Counted from the stretch's first letter, positions 8,190-54,732 are shown. The stretch: 64,000 nucleotides of DNA from Candidatus Multivoradales bacterium (GCA_965223755.1 CBDCXF010000001.1:1487356-1551355); one strand, 5' to 3'. The notes: generated from the sequence alone by a model not told the origin. Program-made: numbers and translations.

Positions 8190-11100
8190 ATGGCCAACCT
8201 TCGACGTGTTGAAGTCGCTATTGTTCTTGCCACTGCCCTGCTTGTCAGCCCTTCCGTCGGACTGAGAGCCGATGACCAAGAAGCTTCCGAGGGTTACTGG
8301 CTAACACAAGAAACCCTCGCTGGCCTCGAACTTCGTGGAATCGGCCCGGCTTTGATGTCCGGACGCATCGCCGATATCGCCATAGACCCCACGGACCAAT
8401 CGACCTGGTACGTCGGCGTCGGTTCCGGCGGCGTCTGGAAGACCACAAACGCCGGAACCACCTGGGAATCCGTATTTGAAGGCCAGGGTTCATACTCGAT
8501 CGGCACAGTCGTCGTCGATCCGCACAATACGGCGACGATCTGGGTTGGCTCAGGCGAGAACGTCAACGGTCGTCACGTCGGCTATGGAGACGGGGTCTAC
8601 CGCAGCCGCGACGGCGGAAAGACTTGGGAGAATTTGGGACTCAACGACTCACAGCACATCGGCCGCATCATCGTGCACCCGGAAGATCCCAACACCATCT
8701 TTGTCGCCTCCCAAGGTCCACTGTGGTCACCGGGCGGCGAACGAGGGTTGTTCAAGTCCGCCGACGGGGGTGCGACCTGGAACAACATCTTGAGCGGCGG
8801 AGACTTCACCGGAGTCAACGATGTCGTCATGCATCCGGAGAACTCCGATGTCCTACTCGCCACCACGCACGAGCACCATCGCACCGTCGCCGCCCTGGTC
8901 AACGGTGGTCCTGAGTCTGGGATTCACAAATCGACCGACGGTGGAGCCACCTGGCGTGAGGTCACCGAAGGACTTCCCGAGACCGACATGGGCAGGATCG
9001 GCCTTGCCATTTCGCCCCAGCAACCGAATGTTGTCTACGCCACAGTCGAACTCCCCCACCGCAAGGGAGCGTTCCTGCGTACGGAAAATTTCGGTGAAAC
9101 CTGGGAACAGATGAGCGAGCAGATTGCCGGCGGAACCGGACCGCACTACTACCAGGAGCTTTGGGCCAGTCCGCACAAGATGGACCGCGTCTACTACTCC
9201 GACGTGCAGTTGCGCGTGACCGAAGACGGTGGCGCCAGCTTCCGCTCGATCAACCGGCCGTCCAAACATGTCGACAACCACGCCATGGCCTTCAATCCCA
9301 ATGACCCCGACTATCTGTTAGTGGGATGCGACGGCGGCATCTACGAGTCCTGGGACTTGGGTGAGACCTGGAAGTTCGTTTCCAACCTTCCCCTAACCCA
9401 GTTCTACAAGGTCGCGGTGGACTATGACGAGCCGTTCTACAACATCGTTGGTGGCACTCAGGACAACAACACTCAGTACGGCCCCTCGCGGACCGACAAC
9501 ATTCACGGCATCCGCAACTCCGACTGGTCGATCACTCTTTTTGGCGACGGCCACCAGCCCGCCATCGACCCGACTAATCCGGACATCATCTATTCCGAAT
9601 GGCAGGAAGGAAACCTTACCCGTTTCGATCGCCCCACCGGTGAGATCACCTACATTCGTCCCCAGCCGGAAAAAGGCGCCGCGCTCGAACGCTACAACTG
9701 GGATGCGCCGATCTTGATTTCGGCTCACGACCCAGCCCGCATCTACTACGCCAGCCAGCGGGTGTGGCGCAGCGACAACCACGGCGACAGTTGGACCGCG
9801 ATCTCCGGCGATCTGACCCGCAACCAGAACCGATTGGAACTGCCCATCGGTGGCCGCACGCGCAGCTTCGACGCGGTCTGGGATCTCTATGCGATGTCGA
9901 TGTACAACACCATCACATCGCTCGGCGAGTCGCCACTTGACGAGAACTTGCTCTACGCCGGCACCGACGATGGGTTGATCCAAGTCAGCGAAGACGGCGG
10001 CTCCAATTGGCGCGCAGTAGAAGCCGGCTCGCTACCTGGCTTGTCCGAGACTGCCTTCATCAACGACATCAAAGCCGACTTGCACGATGTCGACACCGTC
10101 TATGCTGTTTTTGACGACCACAAGAACGGCGACTTCGCACCCTACGTCTACAAATCCATCGATCGTGGAAGAAGCTGGCGCAGCATCGTCGGCGACCTGC
10201 CCGAGCGGCACCTGGTTTGGCGGCTGGTGCAAGATCATGTGAATGCCGATCTTCTGTTTCTCGGGACCGAGTTTGGCGTCTTCACCAGCGTTGATGGCGG
10301 CGATCATTGGGTCAAGCTCAGCGGCAGCGCACCCACCATTCCGTTCCGTGACCTAGCGATCCAAAAACGTGAAAACGATCTCGTGGCCGCCACCTTCGGG
10401 CGTGGCTTTTACGTCCTCGACGACTACTCGCCGCTACGCGGTCTCAGCGCCGATTCTCTCGATCAACCGGCGGCACTCTTTGCGGTCAAAGATGCCGACT
10501 GGTATATCCCTAAGAACACGCTCGACTTCGGCAACCCCAAAGCCTCGCAGGGCGACAGCTTCTTTGTCGCTCCCAACCCTCCCTTTGGCGCCGTGTTTAC
10601 CTACTACCTCAAGGACGACTACAAATCCGCCAAGGAGGTGCGGCTCGAGGCGGAGAAAGAGATCGAAGCCGGTGACGACGTCGCGTTCCCTGGCTGGGCA
10701 GCTCTCGACGAGGAAGCCCGTGAAACAGAGCCGGCTGCCGTACTTACGGTGCGCGATGCTAACGGATCGATCGTGCGTGTTGTCGAAGGCCCCGCGACCA
10801 AAGGTATTCACCGAGTCGCCTGGGATCTCCGCGAACCAAGTACAGCACCGTTGCCCGACCTATCGACCCTAGAGGACGCTCCCGGAGACCCGCACAGCGG
10901 TCTCCTCGCAGCGCCGGGGGGTTACACAGTACAACTGGGTATTCGAGCCAATGGTGAGATTAAGGATCTCGGACCGACGCAAAGCTTCAACGTCGTGCCC
11001 CTGCGCACCAACAGCTTGAGTTCGGCGACGCCGGACCAGGTGGTGGCATTCCAACGCCGAGTCGCGGACCTTTACGGCCGTTTGCAAGGCGCCGTCGCTG

Positions 11101-11942: not shown

Positions 11943-12533
11943 ATGACGGCGCAGACCTTGACCATGACCCAGCCCGCCGCACCCCCCGATCGACCGGACG
12001 AGACCATCCTTTGGCAAGCCCTCGCCGCGGGTGATCGCGGTGCCGCGGAGCAACTTGTCGAGGCCACTTACGAGCGCATCTACGGGGCGCTTTTTCGCCT
12101 TTGCAACGGCGATGAACCCCTGGCCGCGGACCTGACCCAGGAGACCTATCGCAAGGCGTGGGCCTCGCTGAGCCGGTTCCGCGGCGATTGTGCGTTCTCG
12201 AGCTGGCTCTACCGCATTGCCCACACGACTTTCCTGAGTCACGTACGAAGGCCGCGACTCACTCTGCTCGAGGAGCCGGAACGCCTAACCGCACCCGGAC
12301 CTTCGGCGCACAGAACTGCAGAAGACAAGGAAACCTCGCTTCGATTGCAGCGAGCGATCCTTCAACTACCTGAGGACTTGCAGTTCGCGGTCACGGCTCG
12401 CTACTGGCACGAAACGCCGGTGCGAGAGATCGCAGCGCTGCAAGGCATTTCCGAAGTCGGTGTGCGCAAGCGACTCCAGCGCGCCCACCAGCAAATCGCC
12501 AACATCCTCAACCACGATGAGGTGACCTCATGA
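11943..12533 (+). CDS. ECF RNA polymerase sigma-70 factor
   Basis: Region 2 AADLTQETYRKAW...FSSWLYRIA; region 4 EIAALQGISEVGVRKRLQRA; RBS AAGGA. Confidence 0.9.
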   Translation: MTAQTLTMTQPAAPPDRPDETILWQALAAGDRGAAEQLVEATYERIYGALFRLCNGDEPLAADLTQETYRKAWASLSRFRGDCAFSSWLYRIAHTTFLSHVRRPRLTLLEEPERLTAPGPSAHRTAEDKETSLRLQRAILQLPEDLQFAVTARYWHETPVREIAALQGISEVGVRKRLQRAHQQIANILNHDEVTS

Positions 12534-14722
12534 CCGCTACCGAGAAAAAGTTCTCGCCCGAAGAAGTCGAACGGCTTCTCGAACAGAGTTCAGCGGCAGC
12601 TCCACCGCTCCACTTACTCGATGACATCAAGAACGAGATACCACACGACCCCGCCCTTGCTGTCGGCTCACGAACCTGGGGGTTCAATAGATCCCGCACC
12701 TGGATTCTCGCGGCCACGCTGGCGACCGTGGTGGTCGGCGGCTTCCTTGCCCGACGGTTGTCCGACGAAGTGCCCTTTGAGCCTTCCTCGAGCGAGGTCG
12801 ACGAACCAAGCACACTTGGATACCTCGACCTGGGGACTGCACCTGATTCGAAAGACAATAAACCACCCGTCCAGGATGCGACTCCTAAAGCGACTGAGGC
12901 AAAAAAAGCAAAGGAGCTGGGAACGCTGGAAGAAGGCCGTACGCGCACGGGAGCCAGATCAGTGGGTTTGGAGAAGACTCTGCCGCCGACGTCCTTACCG
13001 GTTGCCGAAACGGACATCGCCGAGCGCAAGATGGACAGAAGCCATTTGCGCGAGTTGTCTCCTGCCACCGCTCAGCCCGCCGCGCCAGCAGATCAGGAAG
13101 GCCTAACGGCGACTGTGGAAGAACTGGAGGCGGCCGAGTTCGCCGACGAGATCGTCATCGTTGGCGAGACACGACCTACAGTGGATACCGTTTCCACCGA
13201 ATCGGGCGTTATCGTGGAGTCGAGCCGCAGGAAGCGGGTCCGAGATTTCTTTTCCAGAAAGCGCCAGGAGATCCCCAAGCCGGGCCGGGTCGAGGCGCAA
13301 AGCGGCTACGTCGGGAGCACCGGCGGTACCGCCGAACCTAACGATCAACCCTACGGCGACATGTTCTTCGACCACTACGGCACCAACCCCTTCATCGACA
13401 CCGAAGATGATGCTCTCTCGACCTTCGGCATGGACGTCGATACCGGTTCGTACACGGTCGCGCGCAGCTACCTCGATCGCGGTCATTTGCCACCGACCGA
13501 CGCCATTCGGCTGGAAGAGTTCCTCAACTACTTCGACTACCCGGATTCTGAACCGGAGGAAGGGGACTTTGCCCTGTCGGCCGAAGCGGCCCCATCATTG
13601 TTCGGAAACAGCGAAAGACACTATCTGCTCCGCTTTGGAATCCAGGGGCGCGATGTCGCCACTGAGAACCGCCCGCCGGCTACCCTAATTTTCGTCGTCG
13701 ACGTATCCGGCTCAATGAACCAGGAGAATCGCCTGGGGCTGGTCAAAAGATCGCTTCGCCTGCTGCTCGGCGAACTCAATTCCAAAGACCGCGTCGGACT
13801 GGTCATCTACGGCAGTCAGGGTGAGGTCCTGCTGCAACCAACCTCGGACCATGAGCGTATCGAGCGCGCCATTGATCGCTTGCAAGCGGGCGGGTCCACC
13901 AATGCCGAAGAAGGCCTGGTGCTCGCCTACGACCTCGCTCGCGAGTTCTACCGCGAAGGCGACATCAACCGCGTCATCCTCTGCTCCGACGGGGTTGCCA
14001 ACGTCGGCCGCACCGGTCCCGATTCGATCCTCAAGCGCATCGGCCGGGAAGCCGATCAAGGTATCGAACTGACGACCGTGGGCTTCGGCATGGGCAACTA
14101 CAACGACGTCCTCATGGAACAACTCGCCGACAAAGGCGACGGACGCTACGCCTACGTCGACAGCTTTTCGGAAGCGCGGCGGCTCTTCGTCGAGGAACTC
14201 AATGGGACTTTGCAGACCATCGCCTCGGAAGCCAAGATCCAGGTTGAGTTCGACCCGAAAGTGGTGAGTCGCTATCGCCTGATCGGTTACGAGAACCGTG
14301 ACATTGCCGACGAGGACTTCCGCAATAACAAGGTCGACGCCGGAGAAATCGGCGCCGGACACCACGTCACCGCCCTATACGAGATCAAGTTGCGCAAACG
14401 GCCGACGGCCGACCGGCCCTTGGCGACTCTGCGCGTGCGTTATGCCTCCAACGCGACTGAGAACGTCGTCGAGCAAGACCTAGCGGTCGCCCAGGAGAAC
14501 ATCGCGGACAATTGGCAGGTCGCTCCCAGAGGGCTGCAGCAAGCCGCACTTGTGGCCGAATTCGGCGAGATTCTCAAGAAGTCGTATTGGGCCAGAGGAA
14601 GCGATCTTGAAGAGGTCCTGCGGTACGCGCAAGAATTGGCACCGCAGTTCGCCGCTGACAGAAAGTTCGCCGAATTCACCGGATTGGTCGCCAAGGCGGC
14701 ACAGATTTCGGATCGGGAGTAA
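12530..14722 (+). CDS. Membrane-anchored vWA protein, YfbK-like (vWF_A N-terminal + vWA + DUF3520)
   Basis: TM at about residue 57-73; STFGMDVDTGSY, MIDAS VDVSGSM, LCSDGVANVG, YRLIGYENR, DAGEIGAGHHVTALYE. Confidence 0.85.
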   Translation: MTATEKKFSPEEVERLLEQSSAAAPPLHLLDDIKNEIPHDPALAVGSRTWGFNRSRTWILAATLATVVVGGFLARRLSDEVPFEPSSSEVDEPSTLGYLDLGTAPDSKDNKPPVQDATPKATEAKKAKELGTLEEGRTRTGARSVGLEKTLPPTSLPVAETDIAERKMDRSHLRELSPATAQPAAPADQEGLTATVEELEAAEFADEIVIVGETRPTVDTVSTESGVIVESSRRKRVRDFFSRKRQEIPKPGRVEAQSGYVGSTGGTAEPNDQPYGDMFFDHYGTNPFIDTEDDALSTFGMDVDTGSYTVARSYLDRGHLPPTDAIRLEEFLNYFDYPDSEPEEGDFALSAEAAPSLFGNSERHYLLRFGIQGRDVATENRPPATLIFVVDVSGSMNQENRLGLVKRSLRLLLGELNSKDRVGLVIYGSQGEVLLQPTSDHERIERAIDRLQAGGSTNAEEGLVLAYDLAREFYREGDINRVILCSDGVANVGRTGPDSILKRIGREADQGIELTTVGFGMGNYNDVLMEQLADKGDGRYAYVDSFSEARRLFVEELNGTLQTIASEAKIQVEFDPKVVSRYRLIGYENRDIADEDFRNNKVDAGEIGAGHHVTALYEIKLRKRPTADRPLATLRVRYASNATENVVEQDLAVAQENIADNWQVAPRGLQQAALVAEFGEILKKSYWARGSDLEEVLRYAQELAPQFAADRKFAEFTGLVAKAAQISDRE

Positions 14723-44228: not shown

Positions 44229-44262
44229 CGGAGAGAGTCGACTGCCACCGCGGCCCATCATC

Positions 44263-45636
44263 ATGCCCAACATCATCGAACCGTTCCGCATCAAAGTCGT
44301 CGAACCCATCCGCATGAGCACGCTCGAAGAGCGCCAGGAAGCTCTGCGCGAAGCCGGGTACAACCTCTTCAAAGTGCCCGCTTCCGCAATCATCATCGAC
44401 CTTCTCACCGACAGCGGTACCGGGGCGATGAGTTCCGAACAGTGGTCGGCAATGATGCGCGGCGATGAGTCCTACGCCGGCGGAGCCAGCTTTCGCCGCT
44501 TCGAGAACGCGGTCCACGACATCACCGGGTTCCGCCACGTCATTCCTACCCACCAGGGCCGCGCCGCCGAACGCATCCTGGCTTCGACTCTGTGTCGCCC
44601 GGGCCATGTCGTTCCCAATAACACTCACTTCGACACCACCCGTGCCAACATCGAGGCAACCGGCGCAACCGCATTGGATCTGCCCTGCAAAGAGGCTGAC
44701 GATCTCTCGGAGCGATACCCCTTCAAAGGCAATATCGATCTTGAGGCGCTCGAGTCCTGCTTGAATGAAAACGAGGACAAGGTGCCCTTCGCCATGATCA
44801 CCCTCACTAACAACGGAGGCGGCGGTCAACCCGCTTCGATGGAGAACATCGCCGCGGCATCGCGTCTCTGCCGCGATCGGGGAGTGCCCTTCTACGTCGA
44901 CGCCTGCCGCTTCGCCGAGAACTCGTTCTTCATCCAGCAACGAACCGAAAACTATGCAGGCAGCTCACTGATCGAGATCGCACGTGAAATTTTTTCGTAC
45001 GCCGACGGCTGCACCATGAGCGCCAAAAAAGACGGCATGGCTAACATCGGCGGCTTTTTGTGCAGCAACGATGACGCCCTTGCCCGGCGAGAGAAGGAGA
45101 TTCTCATTCTCACCGAAGGCTTCCCCACCTACGGCGGTCTCGCCGGTCGCGACCTGGAAGCGATCGCCGTGGGTCTCTACGAAGCTCTCGACCAGGACTA
45201 CCAGACCTACCGTGCGGCTTCGACTCGCTACCTCGGCCAGCACGTCGCAGAACACGGAGTCCCGATCGTGCAGCCGCCGGGCGGCCACGCCATCTACATC
45301 GATGCCGAGGCGATGCTGCCCCACATTCCGCCATCGGAGTTTCCCGGCCAGGCTCTGGCGTTGGAGCTCTATCTCGTCGGCGGAATCCGCTGCGTCGAGG
45401 TCGGTTCGGTGATGTTCGGCTCACGTGACCCCCAAACCGGCGATGAACGCCCCGCTCCACACGAGTTGGTTCGCTTGGCCATTCCTCGGCGGGTCTACAC
45501 TCAAAGTCAGATCGACTACGTCGTCGACACTTTGCTCGCGATCCACCGGCGCCGGGAACAACTCCGTGGCGTACGCATCGTTGAACAGCCCCCGGCCTTG
45601 CGCCATTTCAGCGCCATTTTCGAACCGCTCCACTAG
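44263..45636 (+). CDS. tnaA: Tryptophanase (beta-eliminating lyase)
   Basis: EPFRIKVVEPI, DLLTDSGT, THQGRAAE, PLP lysine in MSAKKD, EGFPTYGGL. C-terminal LRHF favours tryptophanase over tyrosine phenol-lyase (LRFF). Confidence 0.85.
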   Translation: MPNIIEPFRIKVVEPIRMSTLEERQEALREAGYNLFKVPASAIIIDLLTDSGTGAMSSEQWSAMMRGDESYAGGASFRRFENAVHDITGFRHVIPTHQGRAAERILASTLCRPGHVVPNNTHFDTTRANIEATGATALDLPCKEADDLSERYPFKGNIDLEALESCLNENEDKVPFAMITLTNNGGGGQPASMENIAAASRLCRDRGVPFYVDACRFAENSFFIQQRTENYAGSSLIEIAREIFSYADGCTMSAKKDGMANIGGFLCSNDDALARREKEILILTEGFPTYGGLAGRDLEAIAVGLYEALDQDYQTYRAASTRYLGQHVAEHGVPIVQPPGGHAIYIDAEAMLPHIPPSEFPGQALALELYLVGGIRCVEVGSVMFGSRDPQTGDERPAPHELVRLAIPRRVYTQSQIDYVVDTLLAIHRRREQLRGVRIVEQPPALRHFSAIFEPLH

Positions 45637-45762
45637 GGCCTGTTCACACTACCTGGTAGGCGCAGCCAGCGGCAGTTTTTTAGCCTGGTAAGGCCTTCGG
45701 CGCTTGGTGTAGCCTCGCTACAGTAGCGCCGGACAACGCAGGAGGACGGAAAACCGCCCTGG
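45634..45762. mobile_element. Structured MITE/IS-end-like remnant at the left edge of the island
   Basis: Begins TAGGGCCTGTTCACACTA using the tnaA stop; nested stems CGGCGC/GCGCCG and TGTAGC-CTC-GCTACA; outer CCAGCGGCAGTTTT/AAAACCGCCCTGG; no matching right end found. Confidence 0.35.
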
Positions 45763-45836
45763 CCCACCGGGTTCCCTTCCATAGTGGCGAGCCCCTCGCC
45801 GGCGCTCGGGCGTTCGAAGTCGGCGCACACCCCCTG

Positions 45837-45845
45837 TGCTACAGT
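45837..45845 (+). promoter_or_regulatory. Putative extended -10 promoter for the island
   Basis: TGcTACAGT, about 180 nt upstream of ATG 46023. Confidence 0.3.
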
Positions 45846-46022
45846 AACCGCGCAATTTGTTAGCTCGAACTCGACTGCGCCGCCGCGCAATTGCGGCCTG
45901 AACGCAGAAATCGAGTCATTTGATCGTGAGGAGGACATCGTGTCAATCCGTGAACTCGACCTTCAGCTCCGACGGAATCTCCGTGCCGTGCCCGTCCAGA
46001 TGTATGAAACAAGGAGAAGCGC

Positions 46023-46646
46023 ATGACCAGCAAGCTCAACTATTACGACGTCCTTGGAGTCCTACTTCCCGGTGTGTTGGTGGTCGCCGTCCTGACCTGG
46101 CTGCTGCCGATGGACTTCGGGGCCGCTTTTAAGGGTGTTCCCGCAGGCCTTCTCACAATCACCGTCACCGGGATCGCCCTGGTGGCGGGACAAGCCGTTC
46201 ACGGTCTTGGCAGCTTGATCGAGCCGTTGCTATTCCGTTCTTGGGGCGGCGTCCCGTCGCATCACTTGCTTTCCGACTCACCCATCGGCGCCCACTACTT
46301 GCCAGCGGCTTCAGTCAAGAGAATTCGCAAAAAACTCGAAGCCGAGGTGCCAAAAGGAAAGGCAAAGGACCTTTTTCTTTACGCCCTTACCGCTGCCGGT
46401 GGTGAGAAAGGCAGAGTTGGAATTTTCAACAGTCTTTACGCGCACCATCGCAGCCTGTTCATCGCCAGCTTGATCACCATCTTCGTCATCGCATGTCGAT
46501 GGTCGACGGAGCGAATTGCGGAGTTCCGCTGCGAGTTGCTTATCCTCGCCATCCTCCTGGCTCTGCTCTTTTGGTGGCGGGCTCGTGCCCGCGCCTACTA
46601 CTTCGCCCGAGAAGTTCTGTTGGCTGCTGAGAAGGAACTCAAATGA
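46023..46646 (+). CDS. Hypothetical multi-pass membrane protein (about 4 TM)
   Basis: RBS AAGGAG; two TM pairs flanking a soluble loop; YDVLGVLLPG, WGGVPS, FNSLY, YYFAREVL. Confidence 0.8.
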   Translation: MTSKLNYYDVLGVLLPGVLVVAVLTWLLPMDFGAAFKGVPAGLLTITVTGIALVAGQAVHGLGSLIEPLLFRSWGGVPSHHLLSDSPIGAHYLPAASVKRIRKKLEAEVPKGKAKDLFLYALTAAGGEKGRVGIFNSLYAHHRSLFIASLITIFVIACRWSTERIAEFRCELLILAILLALLFWWRARARAYYFAREVLLAAEKELK

Positions 46647-48376
46647 TCGCCAAACATAAACCGAGCCTGGCCTGTGCGGCCCTAGCCCTGACTCTCGTTG
46701 CTCCACTTCGGGCAGAGACGGAAGATGAACTGGCAACGAACCGCAATCCCGCCCCAAAACGCATCGTCATCTGCATGGATGGCACCTGGAACAGTCCGGC
46801 CAAGAAAGTAAAGGACGACGATGGAGAGGAGCGCTTCAAGGCATCCAACGTACTCAAGACGTGCCGTGCCGTTAAGGCCCTCGATGACGTGACGGCGACA
46901 TTGGTATTTACCGGCCAACCAACCGATGGAGAGACGGTCACTATCGATTCTGTGAACTACACCTTTCAAGAGCAACTCACCGAAGTCGATGGACACGTTC
47001 AAATTGGGAAGGATGAAGTCAAATCGTTACAGAACCTCCTATATGCCATCAACAAGAAAGGACACAGAGGACGTTATGCGGACTCGACGCCGCGCCACCC
47101 ATCTGTAGTTGCACGAACGGTTCGTGGCAATCCACGTAGCATCGAAATCGTCAGCCGTCCAGATTGTCCATACTGCGACCCGTTTGCTGTTGAAGAGGGG
47201 TTGGCAAACGGCTACTGGATTAGCAAGAACGAAATCGCGACCCGCATGAGAAAACAGGGTCTCGATCCACGAACCGGCATCTCCCAAATCACCTACTACG
47301 ACCTCGGCGTCGGCGCCCTGCATAAGTTTCCAGGCTTTGCCAATCGAATCCACCGAACAGTCGATAAATTGTTTGGAGGAGCTGCTGGCGCAGGTTTCGA
47401 GGGCAATATTGAAGACGCCTACACGTTCCTTTCCCTCAACTACCGCGAAGGCGACGAAGTCTTTCTATTCGGTTTCAGTCGCGGTGCCAGCTCGGCTAGA
47501 GGTCTATCGCGATTCATCGATTGGATGGGAGGTATTCCGCCGCCTGAAGACGCGTATTGGATTCCCGAACACTTTGACGCCTTCATTCGGGGGGCATCGT
47601 TCAAGTCAACACGTAAGGCTCTTCTCGAAGAACGTGAGCGAAGGCGAATCGCGGCAGGAGACGAGCCCGAAAAAGCCAAGGAGAAAGCCCAGGAGACCCT
47701 TGGGGTCATTGTTCCAGCGAGGGTCAAGTTCCTGGGCGCGTGGGACACCGTCTTGTCTCTAGGCGGCCGTCGTACAAAGGCTTTCGTCGGCAAGTCGCCG
47801 GCGCCAGCGGTGGACCACGCACGCCAAGCGATTGCCATTGACGAGCGGCGTGTCGCGTATCGTCAGCGGCCGTGGACACAGCCTGCCGTAGAGCAGCGGA
47901 ACCAGACGCTGGAACAGCGCTGGTTCGCTGGCGCTCACTCCAACGTTGGTGGGGGCTATCCACAACAGGATCTTTCCAATATCGCGCTTCGATGGATGGT
48001 CAACGAAGCTCGTGATGCCGGCTTGGGCTTCGACTGGAACTACTTTTGGGATCGCTCACGGCGCGGCGAATCGGAACCATACGACGGCAAGCTCTACAAC
48101 TCGAACAAAGCATTCTGGCGATTCCTACATACGATCACGTTCCGGCGTGGCAAAGGCGTACGCCCTGTAGAGGTTTCCGAAACTGCGGGGCTCACCCTGC
48201 ACAGATCCGTGTTGGAGCGTCTGGCGTCGAGCGAAGTCGAATATCGACCCAAAAACCTCCTCCGCTACCTGGCCAGCGTCCCCGATCTCGACACCTTCCT
48301 TGACACAGTCCCAGGGCTCCCAGACGGTTTCGAACTGCCCGATGACGTTCTCGAAGCCATCGAAGCGGAGCGCTAG
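46643..48376 (+). CDS. Secreted DUF2235 (Tle1-like) alpha/beta hydrolase with an inserted domain
   Basis: Signal peptide; RIVICMDGTWN, SNV, YYDLGVG, FLFGFSRGA nucleophile, FLGAWDTV, AIAIDERR, WFAGAHSNVGGGY. Confidence 0.88.
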   Translation: MIAKHKPSLACAALALTLVAPLRAETEDELATNRNPAPKRIVICMDGTWNSPAKKVKDDDGEERFKASNVLKTCRAVKALDDVTATLVFTGQPTDGETVTIDSVNYTFQEQLTEVDGHVQIGKDEVKSLQNLLYAINKKGHRGRYADSTPRHPSVVARTVRGNPRSIEIVSRPDCPYCDPFAVEEGLANGYWISKNEIATRMRKQGLDPRTGISQITYYDLGVGALHKFPGFANRIHRTVDKLFGGAAGAGFEGNIEDAYTFLSLNYREGDEVFLFGFSRGASSARGLSRFIDWMGGIPPPEDAYWIPEHFDAFIRGASFKSTRKALLEERERRRIAAGDEPEKAKEKAQETLGVIVPARVKFLGAWDTVLSLGGRRTKAFVGKSPAPAVDHARQAIAIDERRVAYRQRPWTQPAVEQRNQTLEQRWFAGAHSNVGGGYPQQDLSNIALRWMVNEARDAGLGFDWNYFWDRSRRGESEPYDGKLYNSNKAFWRFLHTITFRRGKGVRPVEVSETAGLTLHRSVLERLASSEVEYRPKNLLRYLASVPDLDTFLDTVPGLPDGFELPDDVLEAIEAER

Positions 48377-48404
48377 TGTCTTCTTCCATCGAAAGGACAT
48401 TCTC

Positions 48405-49949
48405 ATGACCATCCAAGCCGGCACCCTGGCCTACATCCGCCGCGAGAAGGTGAAATACAAGCCTCTTAAGGCCGCACGCAGCTTTAAGAAAGTAAAAGAG
48501 AAGGTTCCGTTTTTGTGGGGAGACGCCGTCTATGTCATCTCCACCAATAGCCGCTCGTCGGTGGTGTCCGCGAAAGGACACCACTTTCGCATCGAAAACA
48601 AGGACTTGATGGAAGAGGGCATCTTCTGCCTGTGGCAGATTGACTGCGGGCAAGGAGACGCCGGCTTCATTCGCTTTCCGAATGGCAAGACCATGCTCAT
48701 TGACTGTGGCCCCGGACCGATGATGAGCAACAGTGCCGCCGAGGCTTCCTCATTTTTGTTTTGGATGCGCCACGTCGACCAGTCCTGGCGAGACGAATTC
48801 AAACATCAAGACGGCCCATTTCAAATCGATGCTGTGGTTTGTTCCCATCCAGATTACGACCACTTCGGCGGTTTCCTGAAACTGACCTCGGCCCTCAAAA
48901 GCGGGTGGTTCAGCTTCGGCACGGTTTACCACAACGGCCAAGGCCGCTTTAATGGCACACCCACCGCGTTCAAAAATGGCAAAGGCATGTCGCAGCTCGG
49001 CCCGGTGGAAGGGTTGGGCAGTCCCGAGCTTTACCTCACCACCTTGCTCGACGGGTTCGACGACGTTGACAAGTACAAATCGGCGCGCGGTGGGAGAAAG
49101 TGGAAGCTGTCGGGCAGCTACGCGACCTGGCTGACCGACCTTCTCGCTCTCCAAGGGCAAGGCGTTGGCCGACTCCAGCGCGTGCACTCGGGTATGGGTA
49201 CCCTGCCAGACTTCGACGCGGGCCCTGACGCAACCGTCAAGGTTCTCGGCCCAGTCGACGAGTCGTGGAAAGGCAAGCCGGCGCTACGCTACATCGACCG
49301 CGAAAGTAAAAGCTCGATGGAGAAACCATCGCTGACTCGAAATGGCATGTCCGTTGTGCTGCGCATCGACTACGGCGATGTGCGCATGCTGATGACCGGC
49401 GACCTCAACTTCAACTCGCAGGCGCTTCTCCTGCACCACATTCCTGCGGTCGAGTTCAAATGCCACGTCGCCAAAGCCTGCCATCACGGTTCAGAAGATG
49501 TTTCCACTACGTTTCTACAAGCAATGGCACCGATGGCCACTCTTTTTTCCAGCGGTGACAACGAAACCCACGCTCACCCCCGCGCCAAAGTTCTCGGTAT
49601 GGCGGGCGCTTATACCCCGGCTGCCATGACCGGCAAGAAGAAGTTTCTCGACCTCGAAGAACGCAAGTACGTCGCGCCACTCATCTATTCCACTGAGCTT
49701 TCGCGCTCGGTCCAACTTTTCAAACCCGCTGGCCTGGAGAGGAAGGGCAAGGCCGTTCGTGGCGCGACGCTGAAAAGCAAAGGCGCCGGGGGCCGTAGCG
49801 GCCCGAAAAAAAAAGTGGTGGACTGGCTGCTGGTCGACAGTTTGGTCTACGGCCTGATCAATGTGCGCACCGATGGCAAGAAGGTGGTGATCGGGGTTCT
49901 TAAGGAAGGCGAAGGAGAGGGCTTTCAGGTCGAGAGCTTCAGAGTGTGA
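48405..49949 (+). CDS. Soluble ComEC/Rec2-like metallo-beta-lactamase-fold hydrolase (putative nuclease)
   Basis: RBS GAAAGGA; DCGQGDA, LIDCG, SHPDYDHFGG, NGMSVVL, LMTGDL, KACHHGS, SSGDNETHAHP; no TM domain. Confidence 0.85.
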   Translation: MTIQAGTLAYIRREKVKYKPLKAARSFKKVKEKVPFLWGDAVYVISTNSRSSVVSAKGHHFRIENKDLMEEGIFCLWQIDCGQGDAGFIRFPNGKTMLIDCGPGPMMSNSAAEASSFLFWMRHVDQSWRDEFKHQDGPFQIDAVVCSHPDYDHFGGFLKLTSALKSGWFSFGTVYHNGQGRFNGTPTAFKNGKGMSQLGPVEGLGSPELYLTTLLDGFDDVDKYKSARGGRKWKLSGSYATWLTDLLALQGQGVGRLQRVHSGMGTLPDFDAGPDATVKVLGPVDESWKGKPALRYIDRESKSSMEKPSLTRNGMSVVLRIDYGDVRMLMTGDLNFNSQALLLHHIPAVEFKCHVAKACHHGSEDVSTTFLQAMAPMATLFSSGDNETHAHPRAKVLGMAGAYTPAAMTGKKKFLDLEERKYVAPLIYSTELSRSVQLFKPAGLERKGKAVRGATLKSKGAGGRSGPKKKVVDWLLVDSLVYGLINVRTDGKKVVIGVLKEGEGEGFQVESFRV

Positions 49950-50002
49950 ACACCCACGACCCATATCGTCTTTGTTGCAGCCGAAAGTCCGGGGAATAGA
50001 TC

Positions 50003-51679
50003 ATGAAACAGTCACTCACTCTATACGCGCTGAATGCCACCATCAAAGAGTTTGACGACGCGATTCGTAGCGAAGTCCTCGAGGGGAAGTTGGAGACTTT
50101 CGACCTCGATTCGAAAAAATCTGGGTTCGAGGCACGCCTGTACAGCGTTCCTCAAGACACGAAGGAGCCCAATTGGGCGAAGTTCCTGCGCGACGGCGGA
50201 TTCCACGATTTCAAAGCGACCCCAACGGCAATGAATCGCGTCGCGCTCATCCTGCGGCTGAAGAAGAAGGATGGCGGCGATCTATTCGCTGCAACGTTCG
50301 GCAGCGGACGCTTTCTGCTAAGGCCGACTGCCTACAAGAAGGGATACGGCCTTCGCGTCGCACTCAACACCATCTACGACGGAAACCAAGAAGGCATCAC
50401 CGAAAGATTGCGCCAGATCAAGGCTACTCACGTGGCAGGGAATACTTTTCACACTAGTCGCCAAGCCAACCGAAATGCGGCCTTTCAGGACTTTGAAATC
50501 GACCTAACGACAGATCTTCTAAATGGAGTCGTAGGCGCTCCGTCCAACGCAAAGCGATGGGGTTCCCGCATTAGTGGCGGAGACTCAGTAAGTATCCACG
50601 TTGTCGATTCCTTCGTCGGAGGTGGTGGCACCGTTGGCTTGCTAGAAGCCTGCAAGCGTTTACGCAAAGCCAGCAGCAGCACCGTCTATAAGACAAGGTT
50701 CACCCAACTTGACCAGATTCGTGGAGCGCCCAACGCAATAATCACATCGCTTGAAGACGCTCTTTTGACCAAACTCAGTCAATCTCCACAGCGATTCGTA
50801 TTGGCCCCGCCTCGGCTAATCGATTTCGATGAGGCTGCACAGTTCTCTTTTTCCATTGACACAGAAGAACTGTTCGATGACTTACGAATCGGAGACTTTC
50901 TAAATGTGCTGAGAACCAAGAAAAAAAAGCTCTCAGTCAACACGCTCAAGAAGCAGAGAGTGCGAGCGTTCGACTCCGCAGGCATTCAGGTCTACGACTG
51001 GGGACTATTCGAGGTGCTGGATGGGGAGTTCGAACACGACGACCGCACCTTCCTCCTCGTCAACGGCCAGTTCTGGGAAGTCGACAATGACCTTGTTCGC
51101 ACTCTGAACAACTTCGTCGACTCCTTGCCTCCATCCGAAGTTGAATTGCCACCTTCGAAGAGGGTGCCATTCGTGAAGGACGACGGCACGAAAGCGATCC
51201 GCGAAGAAACTGAGGGCGAATACAACATACGTGCGGCGAGAGAAGGCAAACACGCACTTATGGATAAGAAAACCGTCAAGATTTCCTCTTTTACCGATGC
51301 GATCGAAGTCTGCGATGTATTCACCACCAAAAAACAGTTTGTGCACGTAAAGCGGAAATTTGGTTCGTCTTTATTGAGTCATCTGTTCGGCCAGGGTGCT
51401 GTATCCAGTGAGCTGTTTATTCGGAGTCCAGAGTACCGCCAGAAGACTCGCGAGAAACTCGACGGGCACTTCCGAGACCTTATCCCCGCCGGACACCCGG
51501 ACCCAGGTGACTTCGAAGTCTGTTACGCAATTATTGGTCCCTGGGAAAACAAACCTCCATCCAAGAAACTGCCCTTCTTCAGCAAGCTCAACTTGAGGCG
51601 TCATGTCGTCGACTTGCGGACTCTTGGTTTCAAAGTCACCTATAAGAAGATCGACTTACCTAAGATCGCACCAAAGTGA
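50003..51679 (+). CDS. TIGR04141/DUF6119-like sporadically distributed protein
   Basis: FAATFGSGRFLL, YGLRVALN, RQANRNAAFQDF.ID...DLL..V.G; C-terminal IEVCDVF...FVHVKR..SS.LSHLF.QG.VS and LPFFSKLNL. Confidence 0.75.
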   Translation: MKQSLTLYALNATIKEFDDAIRSEVLEGKLETFDLDSKKSGFEARLYSVPQDTKEPNWAKFLRDGGFHDFKATPTAMNRVALILRLKKKDGGDLFAATFGSGRFLLRPTAYKKGYGLRVALNTIYDGNQEGITERLRQIKATHVAGNTFHTSRQANRNAAFQDFEIDLTTDLLNGVVGAPSNAKRWGSRISGGDSVSIHVVDSFVGGGGTVGLLEACKRLRKASSSTVYKTRFTQLDQIRGAPNAIITSLEDALLTKLSQSPQRFVLAPPRLIDFDEAAQFSFSIDTEELFDDLRIGDFLNVLRTKKKKLSVNTLKKQRVRAFDSAGIQVYDWGLFEVLDGEFEHDDRTFLLVNGQFWEVDNDLVRTLNNFVDSLPPSEVELPPSKRVPFVKDDGTKAIREETEGEYNIRAAREGKHALMDKKTVKISSFTDAIEVCDVFTTKKQFVHVKRKFGSSLLSHLFGQGAVSSELFIRSPEYRQKTREKLDGHFRDLIPAGHPDPGDFEVCYAIIGPWENKPPSKKLPFFSKLNLRRHVVDLRTLGFKVTYKKIDLPKIAPK

Positions 51680-51691
51680 AGTTTTGCAGTG

Positions 51692-51721
51692 AAAAGGCCC
51701 GGTCGCCGAGGCGACCGGGCC
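51692..51721 (-). terminator. Rho-independent terminator downstream of mtrB (possibly bidirectional)
   Basis: GGCCCGGTCGCC-GA-GGCGACCGGGCC 12-bp stem preceded by AAAA (U tract on the minus strand). Confidence 0.8.
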
Positions 51722-51751: not shown

Positions 51752-53626
51752 TTACCAGCTGTAGCCGACCCCGATGTCGACCATGTCGGCATCGTAGTCG
51801 TCGAAGTCAAACCGGACCTCGTCGTAGTCGACCGTGCGGTAGCCAAGTTGCAGCACGTAGTCGTCAAAGACTCCAACCTCGATGTAGCCGCGGAAGTCGT
51901 CCCGCTCAAGGCCGAAGGAGCCGTCGTTCTCGTACATGCGTACCTCCGCACCAAGCGTCAAGCGGTCGTTCGCCTTCACCCGACCGCGAGCGTCAAAGAA
52001 GCTCGAGTCAGCTAGGTAGCGAATGTCGAAAACGTTGGTGAGAAAGCCAGCTTCCACCGCTTGGCTGACGCTGCGCTCAGCATCGACCGCCGAGTACCCC
52101 ACCGAGAACGAGAACCGATCGTCGCTACGGCCGAGGCGCACAGCGGTGATATCGGTATCCGACACCCAGCCGGAGTCATTGTTCTCGTAATCCTTCATGG
52201 TGAGGGACCCTGATGCGGTCCATCCATCGCCGAAGCGATAACGGCCACGCACCCGGTAGCGGGAGCGGTCGGTTGGTGTGGCGAGGGTGAACGGATCGTC
52301 GAAGGAATTCTCTTCCAAATCGACGGTCAACTGGAAGGCCTTGGACGGGCGCCATGCCGCCCCGGCATAGAAGCCGGTGCGATCGGTCTTTTCGTCCTCG
52401 GTCTTGCCGTCGCTACCCAGTGACCACTCGGCGTCGACATCGCGAGATTCTTGCGCCAAACCGACGTGCAAAGTGAGCTGCGGCGAAGCGTAGAACTCGA
52501 CCCCAGCGCTGAAGCCGGTGGTGTCGATCTGCCAGTCGCCGCTGCCGAGATTGCCGGCCCAGGCAAATGTGCCATCTTGGTCGACGCTCTGTTGGCGAGC
52601 ACCAGCCACCAAGGCGACCCGGTGGGTCGCCAAATAGGTCAGCTCGATCTCAAAGCGGTCGGCATCACGATCGACCGAACCACCGCCGGTCAAGCTTTCG
52701 CTAAACGGCAGGCCGCGAAAGTCGAATCCTTGCGATTCGAGGCTGGCGCCGGCGTCCATGTCCAGACTTTGGATCAGGCCGCTGACGCGGATGTTGAGCT
52801 TGTCGTTGGGATCGGCTAGCAAACGCACCACGTGGGTGTTACTGGACAAGTCGTAGGGTTGATCGAGGAAAAAGAAGTCGAGAATTGTCGCGTCTTCAGG
52901 ATCCTCACCCAGTGAACGCCCCGGCAAGAAGATGTCGTAGGCGTTGTCGTAGTCACGGACGCGCTCCTCCAATACCAACGTCGCCTTGTCCCATGCGTAG
53001 CGAAACGCGCCGTAGTACGAGTTCATCGACTCGTGAATCGGACGATCGAGCTCAAACTCGTCACGCGAGACGTCCAGCGTTGTGGTCGATTCGCCGCGCT
53101 TGGTAAACCGATCCATGCCAAACGTCAACTGTGCCGCCTGGCTCAAGTTAATGTCGAGCTTGGCGCGATCTCGCACGCGCTCAAAATCGAAGGTGTGGAA
53201 GTCGCCGGCATTAGACTTGGTCGGATTAAACAATGCCGGTGGCAGCAGCATGTCGTAGTAGAAGTAATCGGACTTGGTGCGGTTGTACGTCAGGTTGTAT
53301 TTGCCGTACTTACGCACGCCGAAGTTGATGGCCTCAAAGGGGTCGCCGCCGAGATTGGTGACCTCGAGCCGCACCTGGTCGGCGAACTTACGGTTGCTAC
53401 CCTGGGGCACCAGGTTGAAGTGAAAATCGAACAGGCGTGGTCCGTCTTCGAGGTTGAAATCTTCTTTGAACTTACGATCGGCGCCGTCGACATCGACGCT
53501 GCGAACGCCAATCGAGAAGCCTCCGGTGAACGTTGTCTGGGACGGCTCATCGGCAGCCAGCCCGGTGACAAGCAACAAGCCGGTGGCGAGGCCAATCAGA
53601 CTTTTGATCTGTGCAGTCTTCATCAT
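51752..53626 (-). CDS. mtrB: MtrB/PioB-type outer-membrane beta-barrel
   Basis: Signal peptide; alternating beta-strand pattern; start KFKEDFNLEDG; terminal aromatic YSW; directly downstream of the decaheme gene. Confidence 0.8.
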   Translation of the reverse strand: MMKTAQIKSLIGLATGLLLVTGLAADEPSQTTFTGGFSIGVRSVDVDGADRKFKEDFNLEDGPRLFDFHFNLVPQGSNRKFADQVRLEVTNLGGDPFEAINFGVRKYGKYNLTYNRTKSDYFYYDMLLPPALFNPTKSNAGDFHTFDFERVRDRAKLDINLSQAAQLTFGMDRFTKRGESTTTLDVSRDEFELDRPIHESMNSYYGAFRYAWDKATLVLEERVRDYDNAYDIFLPGRSLGEDPEDATILDFFFLDQPYDLSSNTHVVRLLADPNDKLNIRVSGLIQSLDMDAGASLESQGFDFRGLPFSESLTGGGSVDRDADRFEIELTYLATHRVALVAGARQQSVDQDGTFAWAGNLGSGDWQIDTTGFSAGVEFYASPQLTLHVGLAQESRDVDAEWSLGSDGKTEDEKTDRTGFYAGAAWRPSKAFQLTVDLEENSFDDPFTLATPTDRSRYRVRGRYRFGDGWTASGSLTMKDYENNDSGWVSDTDITAVRLGRSDDRFSFSVGYSAVDAERSVSQAVEAGFLTNVFDIRYLADSSFFDARGRVKANDRLTLGAEVRMYENDGSFGLERDDFRGYIEVGVFDDYVLQLGYRTVDYDEVRFDFDDYDADMVDIGVGYSW

Positions 53627-53632
53627 GACCTC

Positions 53633-54559
53633 CTATTGCAAGAAGTAAGGATCGAAGTTCGATCCGTGGATTGCGGAGTGGCAGTTGACGCAGTTGGTCG
53701 TGGTGTCGAAGCGCGGCGGAGCCACCGGGCTGAAACCAGCGTGGAACTGCGGCACTTCGGCATGGCAACTGAAGCAAAGTTCGCCCCCATCTTGGTTCGC
53801 CAGCATGTGGCGATTGGGAGAGCCATGAGGTGCATGGCAAGCCGTACAACCTTCGACCATCACCGAACCGTGTTCGAACACAAACGGTCCTTCTTTGTCG
53901 GTGTGACAGCTAACGCAAGGCTCCTTGGCCGTGCTGCTCAGCATCGCCCGCTGCGCCGGAGCATGCGGATCGTGGCAAGAAGTGCATTCCAGAACGCCCT
54001 CGTGCAAGCGATGGCGTTCGTTGAACTCGAATTCGACGAACGCCTCCTGATGGCACTCGTGACACGTGGCTGACGAACCTCCAACGTTCGCCAACTTGGC
54101 CGCAGCTTCGATGCCTTGCAGCAAGGGCGGGCCGGCCGGAGTGGCACTGTGAATCGAGTGGCAGTCGCTGCACGACATGCCTGCTTGGGCGTGTGGCGAA
54201 GCAACGTAGCGGGGGTGCGAACTCTGATGACAGCTGAGGCAGGCCGCCTCGGTAGGCAGGGCGTCGTCGAAAGTGAACATGGTGCCCTCACCACCCTCTT
54301 CCTCGAGGTGCTGGGTGGCGTCGCCATGGCAAGCCTCACAGCTCACCCTGGCCGCAATTCCAGCCTCTGACAAGCTCCAGTCGGTGCCTTCAAAGATTGA
54401 GTGGGGCCCCAGTCCGGCTGCCTGAACGTACTCCTCGTGGCAGTCTCCACAGACCTGCATCGCGGTCTGCGCGCCTTCATCTTCGGTTTCGGTGGACCTC
54501 GCCAACCAAGGTGTAGCAACAGCGACTGTTGCAGCTAGGAATAAGATCTTCCACCGCAT
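53633..54559 (-). CDS. mtrA: DmsE/MtrA-type decaheme cytochrome c
   Basis: Ten CxxCH motifs (CGDCH, CEACH, CLSCH, CSDCH, CHECH, CTSCH, CVSCH, CTACH, CFSCH, CVNCH); GPFVFEH; signal peptide; RBS AGGAGG. Confidence 0.92.
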   Translation of the reverse strand: MRWKILFLAATVAVATPWLARSTETEDEGAQTAMQVCGDCHEEYVQAAGLGPHSIFEGTDWSLSEAGIAARVSCEACHGDATQHLEEEGGEGTMFTFDDALPTEAACLSCHQSSHPRYVASPHAQAGMSCSDCHSIHSATPAGPPLLQGIEAAAKLANVGGSSATCHECHQEAFVEFEFNERHRLHEGVLECTSCHDPHAPAQRAMLSSTAKEPCVSCHTDKEGPFVFEHGSVMVEGCTACHAPHGSPNRHMLANQDGGELCFSCHAEVPQFHAGFSPVAPPRFDTTTNCVNCHSAIHGSNFDPYFLQ

Positions 54560-54732
54560 TGACCTCTGACCTCCTGTTCTGAACAACACGAGGTTGCGGA
54601 TACGTCGATCGCGGGGTTGTCAGCCCCACTGACACTTAGCCCAACCTGAAGGGTATTTTAGCATGTGGTTGGCTCATTCTCGGGTAAAATTGGATTGGAG
54701 TGGACTGCTCCTCATAAATTGAAGGACTGACT

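Follow-up and report, generated by a model that had tools for sequence, protein, structure and literature searches.

Proteins of the kinds dealt with in this work are known from several described systems. 6A-MBL is an anti-phage system in which an E1/E2/JAB protein (termed "Cap2_3") is combined with an enzyme of the metallo-beta-lactamase (MBL) fold (PMC13276650; bioRxiv 10.1101/2025.09.30.679545); the respective NCBIfam models are NF058523 (Cap2_3) and NF058524 (MBL enzyme). PDC-M48 is a PADLOC candidate system that consists of a membrane protein (A) and an MBL (B), and for which we found no publication. Csx27 is a membrane accessory protein of type VI-B CRISPR-Cas, Tle1/DUF2235 proteins include phospholipases of type VI secretion systems (T6SS), and ComEC/Rec2 carries a C-terminal MBL nuclease domain. 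A defence gene embedded in a type I restriction-modification (R-M) operon is also a known arrangement, exemplified by prrC. Here we analyse a locus built of similar domains in a 64,000-nt stretch of Candidatus Multivoradales bacterium (GCA_965223755.1 CBDCXF010000001.1:1487356-1551355), which as a whole is called the window; all gene coordinates are counted from its first letter. The locus, an islet at 46023-51679, comprises four genes, G1 to G4, encoding a membrane protein, a DUF2235 lipase, a ComEC-type MBL protein and a DUF6119/TIGR04141 protein. We read it as a chromosomally fixed, vertically retained islet in which G1-G3 and G4 are separate candidate defence or conflict modules rather than parts of an obligate four-gene system, and give this reading a probability of roughly 0.5. 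The reading is a mosaic one, not that of a single new four-gene system, because only pairs of these genes recur elsewhere.

It is instructive to compare the islet with the systems named above. The initial annotation, made from the window sequence, knew of no named system with this composition, and PADLOC-DB v2 agrees with it: G2 and G4 gave no match, while G1 and G3 matched only in part, and to models of different systems. G3 resembles the MBL enzyme of 6A-MBL in being a ComEC-type MBL that matches NF058524 (1.4e-7), and a G1 homologue precedes such an MBL in one lineage (L174, see below); however, G3 reaches only 31 of the 220 bits that form the cut-off, and the islet has a lipase and a DUF6119 gene instead of an E1/E2/JAB gene. 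The pairing of a membrane protein with an MBL also recalls PDC-M48, as G1 matches component A and G3 matches component B, but both matches are partial (residues 2-32, 8e-4 and residues 111-195, 1e-6, respectively), and in the islet the membrane protein and MBL genes are separated by G2. G1 is similar to Csx27 in size and in its layout of four transmembrane (TM) helices, and the PADLOC Csx27 model covers it almost over its full length (residues 3-186, 1.5e-9). On the other hand, G1 reaches 18.3 bits where the equivalog cut-off of NF040557 is 65, and its neighbours are tnaA and a lipase gene, with no cas13b. G2 shares the PF09994 domain and the GxSxG serine, Asp and His motifs with the Tle1/DUF2235 phospholipases, but differs from T6SS-delivered Tle1 in its Sec-type signal and a 127-aa insert, and T6SS genes are absent within about 8 kb. 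G3 contains the HPDxDH..GG and HHGS blocks of the ComEC/Rec2 nuclease domain without the competence channel or any TM segment, and has additional N-terminal, insert and C-terminal regions. Finally, homologues of G4 lie between hsdS and hsdR (L024, L035, L059, L074) in a manner similar to prrC, whereas G4 of the window has no R-M neighbour and shows neither sequence nor fold similarity to the anticodon nuclease. None of the four proteins thus qualifies as a member of a named system, the resemblance being confined to domains, and the locus is best viewed as known types of domains in a new combination.

The product of G1 (46023-46646, + strand) is a 207-aa membrane protein with TM helices predicted at residues 10-28, 36-54, 144-162 and 165-183, and with a conserved loop, some 90 aa long, that contains the motifs WGGRPS and FNxLYAYHR. 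A Pfam search with G1 gave no match. It is a distant homologue of both Csx27 and PDC-M48A: among the family members compared with the PADLOC models, 26 of 28 matched Csx27 and 8 of 28 matched PDC-M48A. The family has 227 representatives; no match was found on plasmids and none on viral contigs. TM proteins that adjoin other G3 homologues (L092, L118) were considered as counterparts of G1, and turned out not to be homologous to it.

G2 (46643-48376, + strand) encodes a 577-aa DUF2235/Tle1-like serine hydrolase in which the catalytic domain PF09994 is recognised at 3.5e-64 (217 bits, gathering cut-off 27). The GFSRG (Ser279), WDTV (Asp368) and His432 motifs are each at least 98% conserved in 120 homologues. 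The insert at residues 83-209 (window positions 46889-47269) is shared with no more than about 19 close homologues, most of which bear the label Acidobacteriota, and no Pfam domain was detected in it; a sequence search of the PDB with G2 also gave no match. A Sec-type signal peptide is predicted in G2, in its counterpart in a related genome (L001, see below) and in the homologue P0178, and is missing from the other close homologues. Within the subfamily that bears the insert the signal peptide is a variable trait, as some members have it and others do not. The signal peptide makes G2 hard to reconcile with a simple model of a cytoplasmic effector.

G3 (48405-49949, + strand) encodes a 514-aa cytoplasmic MBL-fold protein, with neither a TM helix nor a signal peptide predicted. 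PF00753 matches it at 1.3e-13, and TIGR00361 gives 54.5 bits against a cut-off of 190, covering the C-terminal MBL part alone. The protein can be aligned with the ComEC MBL domains in the PDB (9ic4, 30bt) across the HPDxDH..GG and HHGS blocks, and H148, P149, D150, D152, H153, H360, H361 and H391 are invariant in the family. G3 is probably a metal-dependent nuclease. The family is large, with 1259 homologues at E<=1e-5 that are 50-86% identical and include Bacteroidota and Acidobacteriota, and its conservation across phyla is unusually high, an Aquimarina protein being 66% identical. The regions beyond the MBL motifs, i.e. about 75 aa at the N-terminus, an insert of about 150 aa and about 110 aa at the C-terminus, contain no domain known to Pfam. 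Two distant homologues were found on plasmids, in unrelated contexts, and the search of viral contigs returned only two generic MBL fragments. The names attached to the best matches of G2 and G3 suggest an Acidobacteriota-like organism.

G4 (50003-51679, + strand) encodes a 558-aa protein that is covered practically end to end by PF19614 (9e-116, 388 bits, cut-off 27, model positions 1-523 of 524) and over its full length by TIGR04141 (1.6e-103, 347 bits, cut-off 35). Its C-terminal domain carries a D..E..D..HVK block in which D421, E435, D438, H448, V449 and K450 are invariant (D44, E58, D61 and H71-V-K73 in the numbering of the domain). AlphaFold2 models of the whole protein and of the C-terminal domain have pLDDT values of 85.6 and 95.7, respectively. 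In the domain the order of secondary structure elements is compatible with a PD-(D/E)xK core (alpha-beta-beta-beta-alpha-beta), in which the invariant block might take the place of the D...(D/E)xK motif. A sequence-profile search of the PDB with G4 gave no match. Foldseek found no significant match for the whole protein, the best being RdgC with a probability of 0.6, and no significant PDB match for the C-terminal domain, the best being the CdiA-CT toxin 4zqu (E 8e-3, TM-score 0.27/0.36). The only BFVD match of this domain at E<=0.001 is a phage "Type VII secretion protein" (2.3e-4), which is uninformative, and the three parts of G4 searched separately against Pfam gave nothing new and no nuclease model. 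The family, which has more than 581 members, was found on 23 plasmids, and Thermosulfurimonas, Mesobacillus and Stenotrophomonas are among the genera with homologues.

The four genes were found together at only one other place, a 3.3-Mb metagenome contig (L001) of a relative whose DNA is about 72% identical; they occupy the same site there and have the same neighbours. In a comparison of the two genomes, proteins of the islet have an amino acid identity of 63-86% and those of the flanks one of 69-90%, with a DNA identity of about 70-73% throughout. The islet has diverged as far as the core genes on either side, and must therefore be older than the split of the two genomes. In the relative G1-G3 are intact, and the DUF6119 gene is frameshifted near residue 465 and rearranged; this breakage of G4 supports its independence of the other three genes. 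The rearranged region (L001 10001-16008) has a duplicated junction, composed of the 3' end of G4 and the 3' end of the adjacent porin gene, that brackets an orphan gene of 428 aa on the - strand (12249-13535) without a match in Pfam or NCBIfam.

Elsewhere the quartet is absent: it is missing from about 165 other loci with G3 or G4 homologues, and also from three loci in which G2 has its closest homologues. Neither G1 nor G3 occurs in 80 species-representative genome loci with DUF6119, and DUF2235 occurs in only one of these 80; likewise, neither G1 nor G4 occurs in 80 metagenome loci and several further contigs with G3 homologues. Hidden Markov model searches of these loci detected G1 only in the window and in L001, and the closest homologues of G3 and G4 are either solitary or have other partners. 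The initial annotation had proposed a sensor/effector cassette and had named several outcomes that would refute it, one being that the genes never co-occur elsewhere. What we find is largely of this kind, since the four genes stand together in one relative only, in synteny and with core-like divergence, and the idea of a single recurring cassette is therefore not sustained.

Pairs of the families do recur. The link between G1 and an MBL comes from L174, where a 41%-identical homologue of G1 lies 8 nt upstream of a ComEC-type MBL gene that is followed by an E1/E2/JAB fusion. The operon (L174 45-7261) has the order helix-turn-helix (HTH) gene, G1-like 4TM gene, MBL, E1/E2/JAB fusion and a 66-aa open reading frame (ORF), and then come AbiEi/AbiEii. 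The MBL matches the 6A-MBL_enzyme model at 1.8e-10 and the fusion matches 6A-MBL_cap2_3 at 1.4e-45, which makes the operon 6A-MBL-like, under the NCBIfam cut-offs, with an extra membrane protein. This arrangement was found on 11 contigs. The MBL of L174 and G3 are about 24-30% identical, in the motif blocks only.

Lipase genes, in turn, accompany both G3 and G4 homologues. Next to G3 homologues, patatin-like lipase genes are located in L091 and L094 (both overlapping), L143, L147 and L158, and somewhat further away in L118 and L093, while DUF2235 genes are found near G3 homologues in L171 and L097. The patatin-like proteins of L091 (11539-12915) and L094 (147-1517), whose genes share an ATGA overlap with the G3 homologue, have two predicted TM helices within the patatin domain, so that in these loci a membrane anchor and a lipase are combined in one protein. 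Flanks of 10 kb were scanned, the zone beyond 3 kb serving as an internal control; a greedy gene set was used instead of raw ORF clustering, which was noisy around G3 in high-GC loci. Around G3 homologues, the 331 kb searched at distances up to 3 kb contained 9 lipase genes, and the 389 kb beyond contained none; around DUF6119 there were 4 within 3 kb (437 kb, 4 of 81 loci) and none beyond (804 kb). By our arithmetic, the chance that uniformly spread lipase genes would all fall into the near zone is about 0.46^9 for G3 and 0.35^4 for G4, the former figure being somewhat overstated because L143, L147 and L158 are related loci.

The neighbourhoods of the families contain many known defence genes. 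In L024, L035, L048, L059, L074, L076 and L079 the DUF6119 gene, which is near locus position 10001 in most of these, is located between hsdS and hsdR in type I R-M operons of the order hsdM-hsdS-DUF6119-hsdR, an arrangement for which we found no paper. R-M genes altogether are found near DUF6119 in 17 of 82 loci, 12 of them with type I parts and 5 more with type III or N6_N4 methylases. Septu is located beside G3 homologues (L091, L097) as well as beside DUF6119 (L017), which is also accompanied by IetAS on the plasmid pAMI8 (L182) and by Lamassu (L002). G3 homologues have bSEFIR (L171) and bpMoxR (L172) as neighbours, and AbiE adjoins the operon of the G1 homologue in L174. The families of G1, G3 and G4 thus behave like residents of defence islands elsewhere, which supports the initial annotation in part.

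A further gene pair was seen in the course of these comparisons. In it, an HExxH protein (about 570 aa) is combined with an MBL (about 390 aa); the pair recurs in L085 (5049-7926), directly upstream of a G3 homologue, in L171 (1-2612), near a G3 homologue, and in L006 (46-2158), 8 kb from DUF6119. The HExxH protein alone (L090 11756-13813) is encoded directly 3' of the second G2 paralogue in the genome of the relative. The HExxH-MBL pair may be another uncharacterised conflict module.

As to the layout of the islet itself, the gene calls, profile matches and TM predictions bear out most of the initial annotation: there are four co-oriented ORFs on the + strand, with the protein labels it had given (4TM, DUF2235, ComEC-like MBL, TIGR04141/DUF6119), and the junctions are as it described them, i.e. 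an ATGA overlap between G1 and G2, 28 nt between G2 and G3 and 53 nt between G3 and G4. A GGAGA ribosome-binding site precedes the start codon of G1 (ATG 46023), and ribosome-binding sites also precede G3 and G4 within their gaps. The mechanical ORF of G3 begins at TTG 48300, 105 nt further upstream (48300-48404), and overlaps the end of G2; we prefer ATG 48405 because it has an AGGA ribosome-binding site and because the resulting length of 514 aa is typical of G3 homologues. All ORFs of the islet are intact in the window, with conserved catalytic motifs. The tight spacing, the ribosome-binding sites and the single terminal hairpin fit one transcription unit; a search among sequencing runs turned up DNA assemblies alone, with no RNA that could be used. 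The islet had also been called AT-richer; the dip in GC content is real but mild (0.52-0.57 in the genes against a window mean of 0.60; GC content at third codon positions 0.61-0.71, where the larger genes of the flanks have 0.68-0.75), and G4 is the gene with the lowest GC content and the largest deviation.

The spacer between tnaA and G1 (45637-46022), where the promoter is presumed to be located, does not look like a repeat element. The structured remnant resembling a miniature inverted-repeat transposable element that had been suggested there was not recovered, as the spacer contains neither direct nor inverted repeats, folds no more than expected (z-score -0.42), and has no second copy within the window and no match in an Rfam scan; only one 53-nt match with 77% identity is conserved in L001. 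Nor did a promoter scan of the spacer return a sigma-70-like site on the + strand that would correspond to the proposed extended -10. At the other end, a GC-rich hairpin (51696-51721, ggcccggtcgcc-ga-ggcgaccgggcc) lies between G4 and a convergent porin-like gene, and a scan placed a terminator-like site at 51710-51698 of the - strand; the hairpin is probably a bidirectional terminator that marks the end of the islet. No tRNA genes were found within the window.

The position assigned to the islet, between tnaA and an mtrB terminator, holds for the left side, where the gene is of the tryptophanase family (tnaA, 44260-45636, NF009709 at 662 bits), and for the terminal hairpin, but the mtrB label does not, since no MtrB model matches. 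The gene in question, coding for a 624-aa porin-like protein on the - strand in the region 51752-54589, has only a weak match to GSU2204, and is followed by a gene for a DmsE-family decahaem cytochrome whose 183.6 bits are just below the cut-off of 192.2. The two genes resemble a porin-cytochrome conduit, and NrfH/NapC-type cytochrome genes come next. Within about 8 kb of the islet there are genes for PFOR, DHO dehydrogenase, pdxH, tnaA, the porin-like protein, cytochromes and an M14 peptidase.

How could such a locus work? We propose that a module A consists of G1-G2-G3, in which a Csx27-like 4TM protein is translationally coupled to an exported lipase and followed by a cytoplasmic ComEC-type MBL, and that a module B consists of G4, a DUF6119 protein whose family elsewhere is either solitary, next to other defence systems, or inserted between hsdS and hsdR. 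The mechanism can only be inferred: an infection or an envelope signal might lead the membrane protein G1 to control or localise the hydrolases, whereupon the MBL G3 would attack foreign or host nucleic acid and the lipase G2 would attack membrane lipid, while G4 would act independently, as an accessory to restriction or as its back-up. The more specific version of this reading, that two undescribed anti-phage modules have been joined in one operon, one in which an MBL works with a membrane partner and with a lipase, patatin or DUF2235, that can be interchanged, and the other made of a restriction-associated DUF6119 protein, is a tentative suggestion that we consider somewhat doubtful.

There are several points that weigh against the reading as two defence modules. 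The link between G1 and an MBL comes from one lineage (L174) and from weak profile matches, and the lipase association is confined to a minority of loci, of which L143, L147 and L158 are interrelated. The predicted export of G2 sets it apart from the cytoplasmic DUF2235 proteins beside DUF6119 in L002 and L037. Its closest full-length homologues, 55-58% identical, are located in three loci with none of G1, G3 or G4 nearby and with no obvious defence neighbours save a PIN-domain gene in L089. G4 had been labelled a predicted nuclease, but the fold and Pfam searches could not show a nuclease fold. The islet contains no mobility genes, and it behaves like ordinary accessory or core DNA, since it has neither mobility genes nor a tRNA, its GC shift is mild and it is as old as the split of the genomes. 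Literature searches found no paper on DUF6119/TIGR04141 or on the MBL-lipase pair, nothing relevant to these families on DUF2235 and defence or on patatin and MBL, and no experimental characterisation of any of the four genes.

The alternatives should be weighed against the same data. One of them, which is unlikely, is an ordinary, non-defence function, with G2 as an exported lipase or esterase serving nutrient acquisition or envelope remodelling, G1 as its membrane partner, and G3 and G4 as unrelated accessory genes located downstream by chance. The signal peptides of G2 and of its L001 homologue are in line with such a function, as are the ordinary contexts of the closest G2 homologues (e.g. 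an SSF transporter or a sigma factor next door) without the other three genes, and the metabolic and respiratory flanks, vertical inheritance and lack of mobility genes of the islet. What argues against it is the connection of the G1 family with Csx27, with PDC-M48A and with the 6A-MBL-like operon, the location of the G3 and G4 families beside Septu, R-M, Iet, Lamassu and bSEFIR, and the clustering of lipase genes, which in the 10-kb flanks are confined to the vicinity of the G3 and G4 homologues. The opposite extreme, one integrated system in which the membrane sensor G1 controls the lipase, the MBL nuclease and DUF6119 and all four are required, would account for the operon-like layout, for the gene order kept in a relative with about 72% DNA identity and for the fact that the pair links (G1-like with MBL, MBL with lipase, DUF6119 with lipase) join all the families. 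It is nevertheless quite unlikely, in view of the absence of the quartet and of any trio from the 80 DUF6119 genome loci, the 80 G3 metagenome loci, the further G3 loci and the three G2 loci, the broken G4 beside intact G1-G3 in L001, and the predicted export of G2 as opposed to the cytoplasmic location of G3 and G4.

G2 could also be a secreted Tle1-like phospholipase used against other bacteria, with G1 protecting the producer and with G3 and G4 as separate genes; T6SS effector-immunity pairs have been reviewed (PMC6099711). That DUF2235 is the Tle1 effector family and that G2 is predicted to be exported and is translationally coupled to G1 would fit this possibility, but the flanks of the islet contain no T6SS genes over about 8 kb on either side, and T6SS effectors do not travel by a Sec signal. 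The Tli1 immunity proteins known so far are located in the periplasm, and their genes follow that of the effector, which counts against a toxin-immunity relationship of G2 and G1. Moreover, the G1 homologue of L174 has an MBL and not a lipase as its partner, and the G2 homologue of L089 has a signal peptide yet no G1, so we regard an interbacterial toxin as very unlikely. Several independent insertions at a hotspot, which the initial annotation had offered as the alternative to a cassette, come closer to the truth than the cassette does, but this wording needs to be softened because TM protein-MBL, MBL-lipase and DUF6119-lipase pairs recur above chance. We therefore keep to the reading of G1-G3 and G4 as separate candidate modules in a retained islet.

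If the defence-related interpretation fails, what is left is an ordinary cluster of accessory genes, with the neighbourhood data on the families as the sole lasting result. The particular arrangement of the four genes is in any case of lesser importance than the results at the level of families, of which the MBL-lipase pairing, the presence of DUF6119 in R-M operons and the Csx27-like protein beside MBLs are likely to be the most useful. If it holds, the DUF6119/TIGR04141 family, the large ComEC-like MBL family and the Csx27-like family would gain a possible role in defence against phages or plasmids, and the MBL-lipase and membrane protein-MBL pairs would be new combinations in the modular toolkit of defence effectors. 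Should the two-module version be true as well, the window would contain a natural fusion of an MBL-lipase-membrane module with a DUF6119 module, and the Csx27-like protein would couple the nuclease to events at the membrane, maybe also in 6A-MBL-like and type VI-B CRISPR systems. The connection with Csx27 may then help to explain the role of that CRISPR accessory protein.

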